In this document: piece after piece, positions 54,151-63,304 of the stretch
Layout of the letters: every line of letters begins with the position of its first letter
Numbering within the stretch: position 1 is the first letter of the stretch
From: an uncultured Enterobacterales bacterium
GTDB lineage: Bacteria > Myxococcota_A > UBA796 > CAJQPC01
Assembly: GCA_964604675.1 (NCBI GenBank)
Contig: CAZSAT010000001.1
Location: 29,110-93,109 of the forward strand
Length of the DNA stretch: 64,000 nt
Direction of reading: 5' to 3'
Program-made: the position numbers and the translations under genes
The notes under the pieces: generated by a model
Told to the model about the DNA's origin: nothing
What the model saw: the letters and a program-made list of their open reading frames with translations, nothing else
Database searches by the model: none

Positions 54151-54693
54151 ATGCTGCAGGTTGGTGAGGACGCTCCGCGGTTCTCCGTTCAGCCGGTCTT
54201 CGGGCTCCAGGTGGAGCTCCACGAACAGACCCGGCGCTATCCATTGGTGCTCTGCTTCCTGCCGCACACGGGCTCTCCTTGGTGTCGGGAAGCGATGTTC
54301 AAGCTCCAGGAGGCGTACGCCAGCTTCGACCTGCACGGCGCCCAGGTGCTGGTCATCACCCCCGCGAGCATGGACGTCGCCAACGACTACGTGCCCCGCT
54401 ACCACATCCTCTTCCCGGTGGTCTGCGACCCCCAGTTCGAGCTCTTCTCGCTCTACAGCGTGCCCAAGGGTGGCGCGGCCGGTGCCCTGAAGTCGCTGCG
54501 CCCGGATCGGCTCGTGAAGAACCTGCGCGCCCTGAAGCGCGGACTCGGCCCCGTCGAGGGCGTCGAGACCCAGCTCCCGGCCTTCTTCGTGATCGCCCCG
54601 GGTGGCAAGCTGGTCTACGCGCGCTACGGCGGCGCGATCAGCGACCAGCCCGACGTCGACGCCCTGCTCGAGGCGGCCCGCGGATGCTGCTGA
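54151..54693 (+). CDS. AhpC/TSA-family peroxiredoxin-like thioredoxin-fold protein
   Basis: GEDAPRFSVQPVFG, PLVLCFLPHTGSPWCREAMFKL (Cys in the peroxidatic position) and PAFFVIAPGGKLVY. Confidence 0.78.
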   Translation: MLQVGEDAPRFSVQPVFGLQVELHEQTRRYPLVLCFLPHTGSPWCREAMFKLQEAYASFDLHGAQVLVITPASMDVANDYVPRYHILFPVVCDPQFELFSLYSVPKGGAAGALKSLRPDRLVKNLRALKRGLGPVEGVETQLPAFFVIAPGGKLVYARYGGAISDQPDVDALLEAARGCC

Positions 54694-55802
54694 GCCTGCT
54701 GGCCGCGTGTTCCACCTCCTACAGCGCGTCGGCGCTGCCGACCTGGGTGAACGTGGCTGTGCGCTTCGACGACGGGAGCCACGGCTCGGTCACCGTCAGC
54801 TTCGACAACCCGCGCCGCCCCCCCGAGATCCGCTACCAGAATGGCCTGTGGACCTTCGACGGCGCGGACTTCCTGCGCATCGACACCCGCGTGCGTCAGC
54901 ACGAAGGCGAGGTCCTGCACGACCTGTCGGTCACCGACCTGATGACCGACGAGCGCTACGTCGTCGACACCGAATCCGCCGGTGACCACTGGGACATCGC
55001 GGCGGTTCGCGACGGGGCTGTGGCGCTGGACGGCGACCGTGGCGTGTTCTGGATCGACGCGCGCACCGGCGACGAAGTCGAACCGGGAGAGGTCGCTCAC
55101 GAGCTCGTGCACTTCGGACCCGGACGTGGCTTCACCATCGAGCTCGAAGACGGCACCGCCAACCTCAAGCTCCCCTTGCGAGAGGACGAAGGCCTGCCGC
55201 TCTTCCAGGACGTGGCACAGATCGTCTCCGTCAGCTGGCTCTACGACAACGAGGTCGACGACGCCGAGCGCGCCGCGCTCGGCAGCGTCTTCAAGGCCGT
55301 CAGCCCGATCTGGGCCCGCAACCAACCGGCCGCGGTGGATGGTCGGCTCACCGAGTGGCGCCACGACCGGGCCCTGGCCGTGGACAGCGACAGCCACGTC
55401 CAGGACGGGCTCGAGGACTGGGCCGGCGCCCGCGACGGCAGCTTCGGCGTGGCTGCAAGGGTCGACGACGGCCGGCTGAAGCTCGCCATCAGGGTGCGGG
55501 ACGACCAGCTCCTCTACGGGGAAGACCAGCTGGTGATCCAGGTCGGGGCGAATGCCTACCACGTCGACATCGCCTCGGCGGGCCCGATCCGCGGACTCAT
55601 CGGCGCCAAGGGCGTCTTCACCGACACCGTGGACTTCGGCACCGGGCTGGAGCTCTCCTTGCCACTGCCTCCGCCGCCCACCGAGAAGGCGGCCCTGCCG
55701 CTGGTGGTCAGCTACATCGACGCCGACCCGGACCAGGCGGTCGCCACGGTGCTGTCGAACGCGCCGAGCATGCGCGCGCTGGCGATCCGGCGGGAGATGT
55801 AG
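54684..55802 (+). CDS. lipoprotein with a C-terminal CBM9/DOMON-like domain
   Basis: Leader MLLSLLAAC. The C-terminal VDGRLTEWRHDRALAV...DGSFGVAARVDDGRLKLAIRVRDDQLLYGEDQLVIQVG resembles CBM9-like domains. It overlaps the upstream gene by 10 nt. Confidence 0.68.
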   Translation: MLLSLLAACSTSYSASALPTWVNVAVRFDDGSHGSVTVSFDNPRRPPEIRYQNGLWTFDGADFLRIDTRVRQHEGEVLHDLSVTDLMTDERYVVDTESAGDHWDIAAVRDGAVALDGDRGVFWIDARTGDEVEPGEVAHELVHFGPGRGFTIELEDGTANLKLPLREDEGLPLFQDVAQIVSVSWLYDNEVDDAERAALGSVFKAVSPIWARNQPAAVDGRLTEWRHDRALAVDSDSHVQDGLEDWAGARDGSFGVAARVDDGRLKLAIRVRDDQLLYGEDQLVIQVGANAYHVDIASAGPIRGLIGAKGVFTDTVDFGTGLELSLPLPPPPTEKAALPLVVSYIDADPDQAVATVLSNAPSMRALAIRREM

Positions 55803-56275: not shown

Positions 56276-56313
56276 GCAGAGACACTATCCGACCCCGGGT
56301 TAGCTTGGCCCCG

Positions 56314-57573
56314 ATGTCCTTCCTGCTCGGCAAGATCCCCCGCTTCTCCCCGTCGTTCTCGTTCCGCGAAGCCACCACGGCGGCCCGGTACCTGGCCCGC
56401 AGCGGCCCGGAAGGCGAGGTCGTGCACACCTTCGAGCGCGAGTTCGCAGCCTTCATCGGCGCGCAGCACGCGGTCATGGTCCCGAGCGCCCGCTACGGCT
56501 TCTGGCTCCTGCTCGAGGGCTGGGGCATCGACAAGGACGACGAGGTCATCATCCCGGCGCTGACCTACTTCGCGATCCCGTCGATGGCGAAGCTCCGGCG
56601 CTGCAAGCCGGTCTTCGCCGACGTCGGGCGCACCACCCACGTGCTCGACCCCGCGGCCTTCGAAGCCGCCATCACCGAGCGCACCAAGGCGGTCGTGCCC
56701 ACGCACCTCTTCGGCACGCCGTGCGACATGGACGCCATCCGCAGCATCGCCCAGAAGCACGGCGTGAAGGTCATCGAGGACTGCGCCCAGTCCACCGGCG
56801 CCCGCTACAAGGGCGCGCGCGTGGGCAGCCTCGGCGACGCCGCCTACTACACCTTCGGCCTCACCAAGAACATCACCACGCTCTCCGGCGCGATGATCAC
56901 CACGGACGACGCCGAGCTCGCGCAGGCCATCCGGACCAAGGTCGAGGCCGGCCAGTTCGTCGACAAGTCCGGCCCCGCGAAGGAAGCGGTGGTGGGCCTG
57001 GCCATGTACCTGGCCACCCACCCCTCGATCTACCCCTTCACCACCCACCAGGCGATCGTGCTGGGCAACCTGCTCGGCAAGGACCCCATCCACGAGCGCT
57101 TCGGGGAACCGGAGCGGCAGTACGTCGAGCTGCCCAGCTACTACGAAGACAGCCGACCGCGCGCCGCCCAGGCCGCGGTGGGCCGCGTGCAGCTCGAGCG
57201 CATCGAGGAGCTCAACGGCAACCGCGCCCGCAACGGACGCTACCTCGACGAGAACCTGGCCAACGTGCCCGGCCTCACGGTGCCCAGCTACCCGGCCGGC
57301 GCCGAGCCGATCTACATGAGCTTCGTGGTGCACCACGCCGATCGCCAGGGGCTGATGCGCGAGCTGCGGGCCCGCGGGGTCGACACCACGGTGGGCTACA
57401 TGTCCAACAACGCCGATGCACACGGCATCTTCGGCCTGGACTACGCCAAGGTCCCGCACGCCGAGGAAGCCGCGCGCGACCTGCTCCACATCCCGGTCCA
57501 TCCGAACCTGACGCAGGCGGACCTCGATCACATCTGTGAAGCTGTGCGTCAAGCCTGTCTCGCCCTGGAGTGA
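56314..57573 (+). CDS. DegT/DnrJ/EryC1/StrS-family PLP-dependent aminotransferase
   Basis: FEREFAAFIGAQHAVMVPSARYG, VIIPALTYFA, VPTHLFGTPCDMD, EDCAQSTGA and FGLTKNITT (PLP Lys). I preferred the ATG at 56314 to the track TTG at 56305. Confidence 0.9.
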   Translation: MSFLLGKIPRFSPSFSFREATTAARYLARSGPEGEVVHTFEREFAAFIGAQHAVMVPSARYGFWLLLEGWGIDKDDEVIIPALTYFAIPSMAKLRRCKPVFADVGRTTHVLDPAAFEAAITERTKAVVPTHLFGTPCDMDAIRSIAQKHGVKVIEDCAQSTGARYKGARVGSLGDAAYYTFGLTKNITTLSGAMITTDDAELAQAIRTKVEAGQFVDKSGPAKEAVVGLAMYLATHPSIYPFTTHQAIVLGNLLGKDPIHERFGEPERQYVELPSYYEDSRPRAAQAAVGRVQLERIEELNGNRARNGRYLDENLANVPGLTVPSYPAGAEPIYMSFVVHHADRQGLMRELRARGVDTTVGYMSNNADAHGIFGLDYAKVPHAEEAARDLLHIPVHPNLTQADLDHICEAVRQACLALE

Positions 57574-57576
57574 ACC

Positions 57577-58074
57577 ATGTTGCTGTTGCTCGCCTGCACC
57601 CCCGGCCAGACCCTCGACGACTCGCTCCCCGGCTCCCTGAGCGAGGACGAGGTGGCGCCAGACTTCGCGCTGGAGGACGTCAACGCCACGTCGGTCACCG
57701 CCGGCACCAAGCTGGGGCCCCAGGACCTGCGCGGCACGATCAGCGCCTGGTACTTCGGCCACGGTACGTGAAGCTACTGCAGCAGCCAGTTCGGCTACCT
57801 CGACCAGATGCAGGCAGAGCTCGATCACGTGACCATCGCGGGTGTGAACGAGGCCGGCCACGAGTCCGGCAACGAGGCCTTCACCGACGGCCGCGACCTG
57901 CCCTGGCTGCAGGACGTCGAGGGTGTGGACGTCTGGTCCAGCTGGGGCATCGACTACCGCGACGTGATCGTGCTCGACGGCGAGGGCTACCCGCTCTTCC
58001 GGTACAACCTGACCGAGCACGACCTGGGTACGGACTACGACGAGCTCAAGCAGCTCTTGGACGACGCCGCCTGA
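57577..58074 (+). CDS. thioredoxin-fold (TlpA/redoxin-like) lipoprotein with an in-frame TGA at 57769-57771; candidate selenoprotein (UxxC), otherwise a pseudogene
   Basis: Track ORFs 57577-57771 and 57808-58074 are in the same frame. Read-through gives ISAWYFGHGT-U-SYCSSQFGYLDQMQAEL, with the TGA at the first position of the CxxC-type redox motif. Leader MLLLLAC. GGAG lies 6 nt upstream of the ATG. Confidence 0.6.
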
Positions 58075-58105: not shown

Positions 58106-59272
58106 ATGAACCTGTCGCCGTCCGGCGCAGCCCGCGTAGCCAAGGCCTTCGTCACACGCAGGGTGCCGGTCTATGCCCACTTCGGCACCACCCACCGCTG
58201 CGACCTCACCTGCAAGATGTGTGGGATCTGGCGCTACGGGAACGAGAAGGAAGAGATCAAGCTGCCCGACGTGCAGCAGATGGCCGCGCTCTTCCGGCGG
58301 CTCGGCGTGGTGCAGGTCAGCCTCGGGGGCGGCGAGCCCTTCGCCCGCGACGACATCGAGGAGTGCGCCAAGGCCTTCGTGGACGAAGGGCTGAACACGC
58401 GCCTGCTCACCAACGCCGTCAACGTGCCCAAGGAGCGGCTCGAGAAGGCCGTGTCCTACGGCGTCAAGAACTTCAGCATCAGCCTCGACAGCCTCTACCC
58501 GAAGCGCTTCGACTACATCTGCGAGCAGGAAGGCTCGTGGGACGGCGCCGTCGAGAACATGACCTGGCTCGCCAACCGCCTCAAGGGAAGCGGCGGCCTG
58601 TTGGTGATGAACACGGTCGTGTCGAACCTGAACCTCGAAGAGATCCCCGAGCTGGTGCGCTTCGCCAGGGAGATCGGCTTCGCCGTGTCGTTGCTGCCGA
58701 TCGAGCTGTTGGCCGACGCCAAGGCGGGCGTGCGCAACTGGGAAGCGCGCTTCATCCGGCACCGCCCGGAGATGGGCCTGGTCGAAGGCCCGCAGGGCAA
58801 CGTCTCCGAACGCATCGACAAGGTCTACAGCCAGCTCATCGACATGAAGAAGCGCGGCGCACCCATCCTGAACAGCTCGCCCTACCTGCGGAGCTCGGCC
58901 ACCTACCTGAAGACCGGGCGCTTCCCGGCCGACGGGTGCGACGCGGGGCGGCTCTACTTCTCGGTGTCGCCCAACGGCCAGTTCACGATCTGCCACCGCA
59001 CCAGCCACGACTACGTGCACATCCTCGACCCGAACTTCGAGGAGTACTTCCACTCGGAAGCCTACGAGCGCAAGCGCATGCTCGAGGCCGGGGCCTGCGA
59101 TGGCTGCATGCGCGCTTGCTGGATCGACACCAGCTCGATGTTCCGCACCATGGAGGGCTTCTTCGAGACCGCGAAGCTCAACCTCTCCCAGGTGCAGAAG
59201 AACCCCATCGACTGGGACGAGGCCAGGACCTGGGCCCGCTACGACGACGCGCCCCAGGCGGTCGCCAAGTAG
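58106..59272 (+). CDS. radical SAM enzyme with a SPASM/twitch-like C-terminal Cys cluster (paralog of 4014-5090)
   Basis: CxxxCxxC in TTHRCDLTCKMCGIW. VSLGGGEPF. C-terminal GCDAGRLYFSVSPNGQFTICH and ACDGCMRAC (Cx2Cx3C). I preferred the ATG at 58106 (GGGAG 5 nt upstream) to the GTG at 58100. Confidence 0.88.
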   Translation: MNLSPSGAARVAKAFVTRRVPVYAHFGTTHRCDLTCKMCGIWRYGNEKEEIKLPDVQQMAALFRRLGVVQVSLGGGEPFARDDIEECAKAFVDEGLNTRLLTNAVNVPKERLEKAVSYGVKNFSISLDSLYPKRFDYICEQEGSWDGAVENMTWLANRLKGSGGLLVMNTVVSNLNLEEIPELVRFAREIGFAVSLLPIELLADAKAGVRNWEARFIRHRPEMGLVEGPQGNVSERIDKVYSQLIDMKKRGAPILNSSPYLRSSATYLKTGRFPADGCDAGRLYFSVSPNGQFTICHRTSHDYVHILDPNFEEYFHSEAYERKRMLEAGACDGCMRACWIDTSSMFRTMEGFFETAKLNLSQVQKNPIDWDEARTWARYDDAPQAVAK

Positions 59273-59549: not shown

Positions 59550-60956
59550 ATGATCGGCTGGGCCCCGCTCTTCGGCATCCTCGCGGGCTGCGGCCCATCC
59601 GGGCTGGACACCAGCCATCGGGACAGCGCCGACAAGCCACCGGCCGAGCCACCCTACTCGGTGTTCCTGATCACGGTCGACACCGTGCGGGCCGAGCTCC
59701 TCAGCCCCTTCTACGAGCTGGACACCACACCGAACCTGGCGGGCTTCTACGACCAGGCGACCACCTTCACCCAGGCGACGGCGCCTCGGGGCCTGACGCC
59801 CGTCGCCATGGCCACCTTCCTCACCGGCTTCTACCCCCGCAGCCACGGCGTGCGCGAGCCGCTGGACCTCCGGGGGGGCTGGAAGGGAGCCGTGCCTCTG
59901 TTGGCCCAACGCTTCAACGACGCCGGCTACGACACCCACGCCTTCGTGTCCACGTGGACCTCGATGGCGGTCGGCTTCGACCACACCACCGTGACCCCGG
60001 CCGGCAGCCGGGAGATCCCCACGGTCGAGACCGACCTCAGCCTGGTCAAGACGGCCTACAACGTGATCGAGCGGACCGATCGGGACACCCCCGTCTTCGT
60101 CTGGGTGCACCTGCTCACCCCCCACGACCCCTACGAGGCGGCCGAGCCGTGGTTCTCCGAGCGCGTCGACCCGGACTACCGCGGGCTGCTCTACGACGAC
60201 CGCGGTCGCATCGACACGCAGCTCCTGTCGGGGGTGGCGCTCGGCAACCAGGTGGCCGACGAGGCCGACGAGGCCTACCTCGAGGCGGTCTACACGAGCG
60301 AGCTCAACCAGATCGACGAGCAGCTCGGTCTGCTGTTCGGCCACCTGAAGAAGACCGGCGATTGGCATGACTCGGTGATCGCGGTGGGCTTCGACCACGG
60401 CGAGACCCTGCTCGAGCGCGACGACTACGCCTTCCACGGCTGCTCGCTGTACGAGGAGGTGATCAACGTGCCCTTCAGCTTCCGCGCGCCCGGCGCGGAC
60501 GAGCCGCGCACGATCGAAGCCCCGGTGTCCACGGCGGATGTGGCGCCCACGCTCATCGAGCTGGCCGGCCTGACCTGGGCCGGGGATCGCGACGGCCACT
60601 CGCTCGCGTCAGCCATCTACGACGGCGTGGTGCCCGAGCGGGACGTGTTCTTCTCGCGGGTCGACAGCTCGATCGGCATCCGCCGCGGGGACTGGAAGTA
60701 CGTCCTGGCGCCAGGGGGCACCTTCAACGGCTGCGCGCCCTTCGAGACCCGCCGCGAGTACCGCTACGAGATGCCGGAGCAGAGCCTGCACGACCTGGCC
60801 ACCGATCCCCACGAACGCGACAACCTGGTCGAGACCGAGGTCGAGAAGGCCGCCGAGCTTAGGGCCGCGGCGTGCGCGTACGTCACGTCCGCGCCCTGGT
60901 CCCACGACACGCAGGACGACCAGAACGAGCTGGTGACGGCCTGCACCGAAGGCTGA
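59550..60956 (+). CDS. sulfatase-family (alkaline-phosphatase superfamily) lipoprotein with Thr at the nucleophile position
   Basis: Lipobox MIGWAPLFGILAGC. FLITVDTVRAE, TPNLAGF, LTPVAMATFLTGFYPRSHGV, VWVHLLTPHDPY, GFDHGE and HGCSLYEEVINVPF. The canonical C/S-x-P-x-R motif is absent. Confidence 0.83.
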   Translation: MIGWAPLFGILAGCGPSGLDTSHRDSADKPPAEPPYSVFLITVDTVRAELLSPFYELDTTPNLAGFYDQATTFTQATAPRGLTPVAMATFLTGFYPRSHGVREPLDLRGGWKGAVPLLAQRFNDAGYDTHAFVSTWTSMAVGFDHTTVTPAGSREIPTVETDLSLVKTAYNVIERTDRDTPVFVWVHLLTPHDPYEAAEPWFSERVDPDYRGLLYDDRGRIDTQLLSGVALGNQVADEADEAYLEAVYTSELNQIDEQLGLLFGHLKKTGDWHDSVIAVGFDHGETLLERDDYAFHGCSLYEEVINVPFSFRAPGADEPRTIEAPVSTADVAPTLIELAGLTWAGDRDGHSLASAIYDGVVPERDVFFSRVDSSIGIRRGDWKYVLAPGGTFNGCAPFETRREYRYEMPEQSLHDLATDPHERDNLVETEVEKAAELRAAACAYVTSAPWSHDTQDDQNELVTACTEG

Positions 60957-60995: not shown

Positions 60996-61712
60996 GTGCG
61001 CATCGCCCTCGCCATCTTCCGCCGTGAGCTCGCGAGCTTCTTCAACACGCCTCTGGCGTACATCGTCGTGCCGGTCTTCCTGGTCCTGGTCGGGCTCTTC
61101 TCGCTCTTCTTCAACGACCTGTTCGACGCCGGACTCGCCACCATGCGCACGGTCTTCTTCTGGTCGGCGATGTTCCTGGTGCTGCTCGTACCGGCGGTGA
61201 CCATGCGGCTCTTCGCCGAGGAGAAGCGCACCGGCAGCCTGGAGCTCGTGGCCACCCTGCCGCTGCAGGAAGTCCACATGGTCGCCGGCAAGTACCTGGC
61301 GGCCCTGGCCCTGGTCACCATCGCGCTCGCGCTCACCGCGTCCTACCCGCTCACCCTCGCCGCCCTGGGCGACCTGGACTGGGGCCCCGTCGTCGGCGGC
61401 TACCTCGGCCTCTGGCTCCTGGGTGCCGCCTACACGTCGATCGGCATCGCCACCTCGAGCTTCACGTCGAACCAGATCGTGGCCTTCCTGCTGGCCATGT
61501 TCGGTTGCCTGGTGCCCTACGTGATGGGGCTGTTCCTGCACCAGGTGCCCGCCAGCGTGCTGCCGCTCGTGCAGTACTGCTCCTTCGACTACCACTTCTC
61601 GAGCATGGCCCGGGGCATCGTCGACACCCGGAACCTGGCCTTCTACCTGGGGGTGGTCGGCACCTTCCTGCACGTGGCGGTCTTCGCCCTCGAGCAGCGG
61701 CGTCTGGCGTGA
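60996..61712 (+). CDS. ABC-2 type transporter permease (GldF-like)
   Basis: A six-TM profile. The N-terminal IFRRELASFFNTPLAYIV and LFAEEKRTGSLELVATLPL are typical of the family. The start is GTG. Confidence 0.87.
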   Translation: MRIALAIFRRELASFFNTPLAYIVVPVFLVLVGLFSLFFNDLFDAGLATMRTVFFWSAMFLVLLVPAVTMRLFAEEKRTGSLELVATLPLQEVHMVAGKYLAALALVTIALALTASYPLTLAALGDLDWGPVVGGYLGLWLLGAAYTSIGIATSSFTSNQIVAFLLAMFGCLVPYVMGLFLHQVPASVLPLVQYCSFDYHFSSMARGIVDTRNLAFYLGVVGTFLHVAVFALEQRRLA

Positions 61713-63304
61713 CACCCCGCTTGAAGCTGCGGCTCGACTCCCTGGTCCAGATGGTCCTGGTGGTGTTCATCTGGGTGGGGTTCAACACCTTCTCGGCGGA
61801 TCACTTCACCCGGCTCGACCTCACCGAGGATCGGATCCACACCCTCTCGCAGGCCGGGCGCCAGCTGATGTCGCGGGTCGAACGCCCCCTCGTGGTGAAG
61901 GTCTTCTTCACCGGCGGCCTCGAGACCCCGTACAACAACCACGAGCAGGTGCTGGTCGACAAGCTGCGGGAGTTCCAGGCGTGGTCCGGCGGCCAGCTCG
62001 AGCTCACGGTGCAGGATCCCACCGGCGACGAGGAGCTGCAGGCGGAAGCGCAGCGCCTGGGCATCCAGCCCATCCAGTACCGCTTCAAGTCCTCCCAGCG
62101 AGCCGAGCTTCGGCAGGTCTACATGGGTGCGGCGTTGTTCTACGGCGACCAGCAGCAGATCCTGCCGGCCATCACCAACGTCGACACGGTCGAGTACGAC
62201 CTCGCGCGGGCCATCAAGGTCCTGCTCGACGGCGGCGAGCGCCGGACCATCGGCTACACCACGGGACACGGTGAGCCCGACCTCGCAACGGCCGGCGGGC
62301 CCGTCCAGACCCTGCGCGCCAAGCTCCAGGAGAGCTACGACCTGGTCCCGATGACCCTCGGCGGGCCAGGCCTCATCCCCGAAGAGGTCGACGCGGTCTG
62401 GATCGTCGGGCCGCAGTCCGAGCTGAACCTGCGCGAGCAGTACCAGCTCGACCAGTTCCTCATGTCGGGCCGACCGGTGGCCACCTTCCTGCGGAACACC
62501 CTGCCCAACATCCGCCAGAACCGCGCCACGCCGGTCTACCACGGGCTCGAGGCCTGGCTCGGTCACCACGGGGTTCGGGTGAACCGCGACGTGGTCGTCG
62601 ACCGCGTGCACAACGGCGTGATGCGCTTCCCCGTACGCCAGGGCCAGTACCAGGTGATGGCGCCGGTGAACTATGCGCTCATCCCAAAGATCACGGAGCT
62701 CTCGACCGAGAGCCCGGTCGTCAACGGGCTCGACCAGATGCTCTTCCCCTTCGCGAGCTCGATCGAGCTGGCCGAGTCCACCGAGGAGCTCACCTACGAC
62801 GTGCTCGCGCGGGCCAGCGAAGAGGCCGGACGGATCCGCAACATCCAGGTCGTGCATCCCCAGCACTACACCGTGCGCGACCCCAGCGAAGAGGTCGGAC
62901 CGTGGGCCGTCGCGGTGACCGCCCGGGGCACCTTCCGCAGCTTCTTCTCGGGTCGCGAGATCCCGGAGGCCGTGGTGCAGTCGGTCGACGAAGAGCCGGA
63001 TGCGCCGCTCATCGTCGAGTCCGCACCCACGCGGCTCGTGGTGGTCGGCAGCGCCGACATGATCGCGAACAACACCGGCTTCATGCTCAACCTGGCCGAC
63101 TGGATGGTGCAGGACGAAGCGCTGATCTCGATCCGCACCAAGAGCGTGCAGGTGCCGCCGCTCGAGAGCCTCGACGGCCAGAGGCTGCTCGCCGTGAAGC
63201 TCGCCAACCTGGGCGGCCCGGCGCTCCTGCTCATCCTCTTCGGCGCCTTCCGCTTCGGGATCCGTCGACGCGTGGAGCAAGCCCCGCGCAGGAGCCCGGC
63301 GTGA
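61709..63304 (+). CDS. GldG-like ABC-transport auxiliary protein
   Basis: The GTG overlaps the permease stop (GTGA at 61709-61712). An N-terminal TM segment, then RLDLTEDRIHTLS, VKVFFTG, TTGHGEPDL and a C-terminal TM segment plus basic tail. Confidence 0.85.
   Translation: MTPRLKLRLDSLVQMVLVVFIWVGFNTFSADHFTRLDLTEDRIHTLSQAGRQLMSRVERPLVVKVFFTGGLETPYNNHEQVLVDKLREFQAWSGGQLELTVQDPTGDEELQAEAQRLGIQPIQYRFKSSQRAELRQVYMGAALFYGDQQQILPAITNVDTVEYDLARAIKVLLDGGERRTIGYTTGHGEPDLATAGGPVQTLRAKLQESYDLVPMTLGGPGLIPEEVDAVWIVGPQSELNLREQYQLDQFLMSGRPVATFLRNTLPNIRQNRATPVYHGLEAWLGHHGVRVNRDVVVDRVHNGVMRFPVRQGQYQVMAPVNYALIPKITELSTESPVVNGLDQMLFPFASSIELAESTEELTYDVLARASEEAGRIRNIQVVHPQHYTVRDPSEEVGPWAVAVTARGTFRSFFSGREIPEAVVQSVDEEPDAPLIVESAPTRLVVVGSADMIANNTGFMLNLADWMVQDEALISIRTKSVQVPPLESLDGQRLLAVKLANLGGPALLLILFGAFRFGIRRRVEQAPRRSPA

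Follow-up and report, generated by a model that had tools for sequence, protein, structure and literature searches.

Reading frame and surroundings of the in-frame TGA

The window, which here means the whole stretch of 64,000 nucleotides analysed, carries two ORFs at 57577-57771 and 57808-58074 that share one frame, with the TGA at 57769-57771 between them. The frame was followed from the ATG at 57577 to this TGA, over 12 sense codons to the ATG at 57808, and from there to the TGA at 58072-58074. The read-through product was 165 residues long, with ...SAWYFGHGT-U-SYC-SSQFGYLDQMQAELD... around the internal TGA, and the motif neighbourhood in the window protein was ...WYFGHGT-U-SYC-SSQFGYLD.... 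The features of the locus were as follows.

57567..57570, + strand: Shine-Dalgarno sequence GGAG, 6 nt 5' of the ATG and within the 3' end of the DegT-type aminotransferase gene (direct reading)
57577..58074, + strand: predicted complete selenoprotein CDS, 165 codons including the Sec codon, then the terminal TGA at 58072-58074
57577..57597, + strand: very short leader M-L-L-L-L-A-C, similar to that of a lipoprotein; codon 7 encodes the lipobox Cys (translation)
57769..57771, + strand: in-frame TGA as putative selenocysteine, residue 65, position 1 of U-S-Y-C (homologue codons, 2lrn alignment, P0001 model)
57778..57780, + strand: TGC codon of residue 68, predicted as the resolving Cys in UxxC (T and G invariant in 53 of 53 Sec forms)
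57782..57798, + strand: predicted SECIS core hairpin, stem 57782-57787/57793-57798, loop AGUUC 57788-57792 (covariation in 53 sequences)
57958..57960, + strand: CGC codon for Arg128 of the motif YRDVIVLD (no substitution in alignments A1 and A2; facing the Pro of 'GFPHIILVD' in the 2lrn alignment, E = 0.48)

An earlier note on this DNA had described the shared frame and its division by a TGA and 12 sense codons, and direct reading and translation gave the same picture. It had also stated that the second half has no ribosome-binding site of its own; by direct reading, no Shine-Dalgarno sequence preceded the second ORF (from 57808). Furthermore, the high GC3 that it reported through the junction was found again, with G or C at the third position of all 12 junction codons and a GC3 of 0.93-0.95 in both halves. 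The frame was intact, and all the family-invariant residues were kept. In a six-frame scan of the 64-kb window, the TGA at 57769-57771 was the only one with at least 40 open codons and a GC3 above 0.85 on both sides. It was also the only internal stop among the 33 confident genes of the window. These genes ended in TGA (26) or TAG (7), the selenoprotein gene itself ending in TGA, and UGA was therefore regarded as a normal stop in this organism.

The base call was checked in other assemblies. The TGA was reproduced, the 501-bp gene including it being 100% identical in ENA ERZ27249630, ENA ERZ27251152, JGI 3300024344, and Logan SRR5211068; these four assemblies were made with different assemblers, and some of them may share overlapping read sets. 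In all four of these public assemblies, the gene calls divide the gene into two ORFs, one of 64 aa and one of 88 aa. On the selenoprotein reading, it is mis-annotated in all public assemblies that hold it, either as two hypothetical ORFs (64 and 88 aa) or with the TGA as Trp, and would therefore be another example of selenoproteins lost from metagenome annotation.

The neighbours in the window were MoaC, a DegT-type aminotransferase, a radical SAM protein, a sulfatase-superfamily protein, and a GldF/GldG-like ABC system. The aminotransferase (DegT/DnrJ/EryC1 type, region 56305-57579) had its TGA at 57571-57573, in the frame of the redoxin and one codon (ACC) before the redoxin ATG. The two genes are probably translationally coupled, and the shared frame of the aminotransferase stop and the redoxin is probably due to chance. 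The radical SAM protein (58106-59272) had a CxxxCxxC motif near its N-terminus and generic SPASM/MoaA-like matches, with no equivalog. In the sulfatase/alkaline-phosphatase-superfamily protein (59550-60956), the nucleophile position looked by eye to be Thr, not Cys or Ser. It was followed by the GldF/GldG-like ABC pair (60996-63304), an arrangement that was not kept beside the selenoprotein homologues. In addition, a second thioredoxin-fold gene (AhpC-TSA/Redoxin, 180 aa), which the gene calls of the public assemblies include, was located at about 54151-54693, roughly 3 kb upstream of the selenoprotein gene, and after it, at 54684-55802, came a 372-aa protein with no family match.

The DegT, radical SAM, and MoaC genes were not kept around the homologues. 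A sulfatase-like gene was present within 5 kb in about seven of 59 loci, a proximity that is probably not meaningful. No cytochrome-maturation or CcdA/DsbD gene adjoined the selenoprotein gene, and the gene context pointed to no functional partner. As for the Sec machinery, no selA, selB, or selD was found with NCBIfam and Pfam among about 30 ORFs of the 64-kb window or in about 5 kb beyond it, and ARAGORN detected no tRNA-Sec, either in the window and these 5 kb or in the 60 homologous and related loci that were retrieved.

Family, Sec/Cys alternation and the hairpin 3' of the TGA

The read-through protein matched the NCBIfam model NF053656.1 redoxin_TUGYCR ('TUGYCR motif thioredoxin fold (seleno)protein') with 183.8 bits (cutoff 100, E = 1.5e-54). 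One uninterrupted alignment, running through the TGA, joined residues 28-163 to positions 2-145 of the 146 in the profile. The match means that the family is already curated as containing selenoproteins, and since NCBI does so, the find is regarded as correct but fairly ordinary. Among predicted bacterial selenoproteins, those with a thioredoxin fold and UxxC form the commonest class. The score with Pfam PF00578 (AhpC-TSA) was 17.5 bits, below the cutoff of 26. Compared with the signature T-[U/C]-G-Y-C-R, the window motif T-U-S-Y-C-S kept T, U, Y, and C, with S for G and S for R. The TUSYCS variant was present in many TGA-bearing family loci, and SYCS was common in Myxococcota-like loci. A full-text literature search for 'TUGYCR' returned no paper using the family name, and the database cluster names were 'hypothetical protein' or 'thiol-disulfide isomerase/thioredoxin'. 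A profile search of 1.84 billion representatives yielded 846 clusters at E <= 1e-10.

A homologue scan with one genome per species gave 58 loci with 59 gene copies, one of which (L057) ran off its contig ahead of the codon of interest. The loci came from Myxococcota, Planctomycetota (Pirellulaceae), and Verrucomicrobiales MAGs and from the isolate Nannocystaceae ST9, and the family is found mainly in Myxococcota, Planctomycetota, and Verrucomicrobiales. The closest locus in this species-representative scan showed 60% identity. Among the 58 readable copies, the codon at the Sec position was TGA in 52, TGT or TGC in five (L030, L033, L041, L044, and L049), and TGN in one (L037), and tblastn matches spanned the TGA in 58 loci. 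The T and G of the resolving-Cys codon (alignment columns 10-11) were invariant in the 53 Sec forms, and its third base was C or T only, so residue 68 is always encoded as Cys. Several paralogues were observed, all with TGA: a tandem pair in L009 (9282 and 10121), L011, L026, and L045 in one MAG, and L014 and L027 in one MAG.

The Cys forms from Pirellulaceae/Rhodopirellula (L030, L033, L037, and L049) were C-terminal domains with about 1,500 codons upstream in the ORF, and L041 was a similar C-terminal-domain Cys form, but cut by a contig end. The Sec/Cys state correlates with domain architecture, because the Sec forms were small stand-alone genes and the Pirellulaceae Cys forms were C-terminal domains. 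Separately, a protein of 612 aa from the representative search (P0014) contained five tandem matches to the family profile, with T-D-x-A-C in at least two of them and thus Asp at the Sec/Cys position. Judged from its motifs, this multi-domain variant may be redox-inactive.

The protein search gave two full-length Cys homologues (P0001, TCGYC; P0004, TCPYC), three proteins with 'W', and eight fragments of about 99 aa that started just past the Sec position. The alignment of Cys with the TGA that the earlier note would expect of a selenoprotein was present in P0001 and P0004 and in the five TGT/TGC copies. A 'W' at the Sec position was recorded in P0002, P0003, P0006, and P0019 (L066 and L067), where the gene caller had used code 4 on short contigs. 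It was taken as a gene-caller artefact because the DNA of two of the 'W' proteins reads TGA. In the best 150 of the 846 clusters together with the earlier matches, there were 48 CxxC motif matches, four with 'W', and at least 59 short post-Sec fragments. The median dN/dS was 0.41 upstream and 0.49 downstream of the TGA, values that are rough and upper-bound-like because synonymous sites were saturated. As a rough indication, both sides of the TGA appear to be under similar constraint.

The hairpin AGCC/AGUUC/GGCU, which the earlier note had placed at 57784-57796, was present as described and equalled the core of a family helix. In a gap-free alignment of the 45 nt from the TGA in the 53 Sec forms, columns 14-19 paired with columns 25-30 (consensus GUAGCC/GGCUAC) to form a 6-bp stem closed by the loop AGUUY. 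Standard pairs occupied 96.7% of the pair cells, compared with 23-54% when the partners were slid by 1-3 columns. Three of the six pairs changed on both sides (33 cells), and none of 500 shuffles reached the observed pairing or covariation score. The same helix was predicted independently by RNAalifold. The compensatory pairs arose through amino-acid swaps, with SSQFGY (AGU AGC...GGC UAC) set against SAQFGH, RSQFGF, and RAQFGR. Since the compensatory changes occur via coupled amino-acid substitutions, the RNA structure would constrain the protein sequence. Within columns 13-30 of alignment A3 (window 57781-57798), two protein positions that are four residues apart covaried, apparently for RNA reasons. 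In the non-TGA forms (the five TGT/TGC copies and the TGN copy L037), the helix was lost in six of six, and the loop G was lost in L033, L037, and L049. Judged by this alignment, the hairpin that the earlier note had pointed out is the conserved, covarying core of the predicted SECIS element of the family.

In the window copy, a C·A mismatch at 57783/57797 left a 4-bp stem (57784-57787/57793-57796) and a closing G-C pair. The mismatch arose from AGC, not AGU, as the first Ser codon, and the pair 57783/57797 was a standard one in 48 of the 53 Sec forms. The MFE of the mini-hairpin was -4.9 kcal/mol in the window, the weakest of the 53, compared with a family median of -8.3 kcal/mol and 0 to -3.5 kcal/mol in the non-TGA forms. 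Four other Sec forms had low stability too, with MFE values of -5.1 to -5.3 kcal/mol. The earlier note had called the hairpin weak and had found no convincing longer stem. This was right for the window copy and for the longer stem, of which no conserved one was found, but the core is conserved and covarying, and a typical member of the family is more stable. Longer folds that contain the window hairpin reached -15.7 kcal/mol for 60 nt starting at the UGA and -22 kcal/mol for 65 nt starting 3 nt before it. The 65-nt fold had z = -1.67 and was not significant against shuffled sequences, and RNAalifold kept the short helix only.

The UGA-to-loop spacing was 16 nt, and the loop had 5 nt with G-U at positions 2-3. 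The bacterial SECIS (bSECIS) model, as quoted in PMC13188914, has a loop of 3-9 nt with G at one of its first two positions, at least 4 bp in the stem, a spacing of 16-37 nt, and an MFE of -7.5 kcal/mol or lower. The family hairpin fits the geometry of this model (PMC13188914) and shows covariation as well. For the window hairpin, the loop, the G, and the spacing fit; the stem consists of 4 bp, the mismatch, and the G-C pair, and the -4.9 kcal/mol of the hairpin alone lies above the -7.5 kcal/mol limit. No SECIS or other relevant match was obtained with Rfam, either in the whole window at gathering thresholds or in 57700-57900 at permissive E-values.

Predicted fold, active site and leader

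The structure was modelled with AlphaFold2 for the Cys homologue P0001, which is 57% identical to the window protein (pLDDT 88.9, pTM 0.81). In this model, Cys63, equivalent to the Sec position, lay between strand 53-59 and helix 64-82, at the helix N-cap. The best Foldseek match of the model was ResA 1su9 (E = 5.8e-10, target-normalised TM 0.81), followed by TlpA/DsbE-like proteins and pneumococcal Etrx lipoproteins, and then by AhpE, Bcp4, and SCO1. According to the model, P0001 has a thioredoxin (ResA/TlpA-like) fold in which the residue at the Sec position caps the helix. Sequence matches to PDB chains were marginal and TlpA-like only (E = 0.5-1.2); in the alignment with the TlpA-like 2lrn, the Sec position was opposite the first Cys of C-S-W-C. 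The second half had been described in the earlier note as incomplete as a fold, in agreement with the finding that it takes both halves to match the family profile and the structural model.

The residue equivalent to Arg128 in P0001, Arg132, was invariant in alignment A4 (numbered on P0001). Arg128 appears to replace the cis-Pro of TlpA-like proteins, and this assignment is a weak one because the 2lrn profile alignment had only E = 0.48. The order of fold elements given in the earlier note was partly retained. The stop did fall at the first Cys of CxxC, but LPWLQD is not the cis-Pro region, because Arg128 aligns opposite the Pro of the cis-Pro loop; LPWLQD corresponds to the preceding strand motif of the 'FPLLxD' type.

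A similarly short leader was found in L001, L005, and L012, giving MLLL(L/A/F)LAC together with the window and leaving 6-7 residues before the lipobox Cys. In these short-leader genes, a stop codon occurred 1-3 codons upstream, and there was no charged n-region. Because it recurs in these three loci, the ultra-short leader was considered a real feature of a sub-clade and not an assembly artefact. The other homologues had ordinary signal or lipoprotein leaders, low-complexity linkers, or long N-terminal regions. The assignment as a lipoprotein in the earlier note thus agrees with the lipobox Cys and with the recurrence of the leader, but MLLLLAC is unusually short for a lipoprotein signal. A leader of six residues before the lipobox Cys is atypical for lipoprotein signal or export function, and the protein is presumed to be exported.

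Interpretation, alternatives and comparison with known systems

The stretch 57577-58074 is very probably one gene, which encodes a small and probably envelope-exposed thioredoxin-fold selenoprotein of the NF053656 family. The candidate UxxC thioredoxin-fold selenoprotein of the earlier note was upheld by the NF053656 match through the TGA, the Cys-aligned homologues, the TGA in 52 other copies, and the conserved hairpin. Judging from these comparisons, the in-frame TGA almost certainly encodes selenocysteine in a small, presumably exported thioredoxin-fold redox protein. We infer that Sec is inserted in the source organism. The locus is a genuine, publicly unannotated member of a curated Sec/Cys thioredoxin-fold family.

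In the proposed mechanism, the UGA at 57769-57771 would be decoded as selenocysteine, with SelB and Sec-tRNA(Sec) recruited by the short SECIS hairpin within the CDS, and the terminal UGA of the gene, which has no such hairpin, would terminate translation normally. Sec65 would cap helix alpha-1 at its N-terminus, where the nucleophilic Cys lies in a CxxC motif. There it could form a selenenylsulfide with Cys68 in thiol-disulfide or peroxide redox chemistry.

The most serious alternative is that the locus is a decaying or non-functional copy of a true selenoprotein gene, a pseudogene in the making with poor or no read-through, either through a weakened SECIS or through loss of the Sec trait. 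The window hairpin is indeed the weakest of the 53 Sec forms, with C·A where 48 of 53 keep a standard pair; no Sec machinery was seen within the 64 kb, and the leader peptide is unusually short. Decay is nevertheless difficult to reconcile with a frame that is intact in both halves, at a GC3 of 0.93-0.95, and with the retention of every family-invariant residue. Four G/C-rich pairs and the closing G-C are also kept in the hairpin, as is the AGUU that is invariant in the loop; the hairpin is more stable than that of any Cys form, and four other Sec forms are nearly as weak (-5.1 to -5.3 kcal/mol). Moreover, L001, L005, and L012 have conserved the short leader, and the sequence is identical in four assemblies. 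There is a small chance of a poorly decoded or decaying copy, given the weakened hairpin and the negative search for Sec machinery in the window and about 5 kb beyond it.

The other two explanations are less probable still. Two separate genes of 64 and 88 aa, or a UGA read as Trp or Gly under an alternative code, would agree with the two ORFs called in four of four public assemblies and with the W given for this codon in some databases. However, each half alone is an incomplete fold, since both are required by the profile and by the structural model, and the second ORF has no Shine-Dalgarno sequence, while 26 of the 33 genes, this one included, end at TGA, and the 'W' is a gene-caller artefact over DNA that reads TGA. 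This explanation is accordingly considered very unlikely. Least probable of all, with hardly any chance of being correct, is the view that an ordinary CxxC redoxin gene acquired the TGA by chance nonsense mutation or shows it through an error of sequencing or assembly. Such a change needs one base only (TGC or TGT to TGA), and Cys forms do exist in the family, but the identical codon is present in 52 other copies from three phyla, the hairpin is confined to the TGA forms, and four assemblies from different assemblers have the identical sequence. The reading as a mutation or error was effectively refuted by the TGA in the other 52 copies, the TGA-linked hairpin, and the four assemblies.

With the selenoprotein reading preferred, a large uncharacterised family gains a member whose SECIS is minimal and weakened, and the knowledge of Sec decoding is unchanged by the locus. 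The points of mild interest are the uncharacterised chemistry (Arg for cis-Pro), the minimal SECIS kept via coupled amino-acid changes, and the ultra-short leader. A more far-reaching and rather doubtful proposal is that the family represents an uncharacterised extracytoplasmic enzyme with a TlpA/ResA-like scaffold, a Prx-style catalytic Arg in place of the cis-Pro, and a Sec nucleophile. It would then be a selenium-dependent peroxidase or reductase of the envelope, distinct from both parents, in which the sub-clade of the window has a six-residue lipoprotein leader and the SECIS is kept via coupled substitutions.

Like the present element, the SECIS of the E. coli fdhF type and the bSECISearch consensus are hairpins that follow the UGA closely within the coding frame and have a small apical loop containing G-U. 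The minimal fdhF SECIS has a spacing of 11 nt. In the window and the family, the UGA and the loop are 16 nt apart, with a spacer of 10-11 nt before the mini-helix. Unlike the fdhF-type SECIS, the family element has 6 bp (4+1 in the window), no conserved lower stem, and no match to an Rfam model.

ResA, TlpA, and CcmG (DsbE) were the best structural matches, and in them the redox motif is likewise at the N-terminus of helix alpha-1. They are exported proteins with a membrane or lipid anchor, a likeness to the family protein insofar as the latter is presumably exported. The window protein differs from them in having Sec for the first Cys, apparently Arg for the cis-Pro, and marginal sequence similarity. 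When it was compared with the characteristics of this group, the UxxC was in the right place, an Arg appeared to stand at the cis-Pro position, and the Pfam threshold was not reached (PF00578, 17.5 vs 26). Thus, the window protein resembles TlpA/ResA/CcmG in fold and is not a member by sequence.

Peroxiredoxins (AhpC/TSA, BCP, and AhpE) have the motifs 'FPLLSD' and 'R-x-x-F-I-I-D', with a peroxiredoxin Arg at the latter site. LPWLQD and YRDVIVLD of the window protein resemble these Prx motifs, and the Arg is structurally equivalent. In addition, AhpE and Bcp4 were among the fold matches, and the PF00578 match was weak. The active site is different from that of peroxiredoxins: in GHGT-U-SYC of the window protein, Thr adjoins the Sec, there is no Pro, and a resolving Cys of the CxxC type follows three residues on. 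With R128 present, PxxxTxxC absent, and the Pfam score below threshold, the protein was not classed as a peroxiredoxin. A chemistry intermediate between TlpA and Prx may reasonably be supposed, and the family may have peroxidase activity.

Prx-like and Trx-like UxxC families are known from marine metagenomes (Zhang and Gladyshev, GOS selenoproteome, PMC2398784; reviews PMC9312934, PMC13188914), and the family of the window protein appears to be of the same general kind. In these sources, the GOS Prx-like and Trx-like proteins are described as having a thioredoxin fold, a UxxC motif, and distant AhpC/TSA similarity, as coming mostly from uncultured bacteria, and as having Cys homologues (PMC2398784, PMC9312934, PMC13188914). 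With the published subfamilies Prx-like 1/2/3 and Trx-like 1/2/3, the comparison was one of description, and the window protein scored only 17.5 bits with PF00578, against a cutoff of 26.

The closest known system is NF053656 itself. The window protein is like this family in its full-length profile match and in the Sec/Cys that comes right after the conserved Thr and is followed by x-Y-C, and Sec and Cys forms both exist in the family. The window copy is unlike the family in having T-U-S-Y-C-S for T-U-G-Y-C-R, a very short leader, and a SECIS stem that is the weakest of all.
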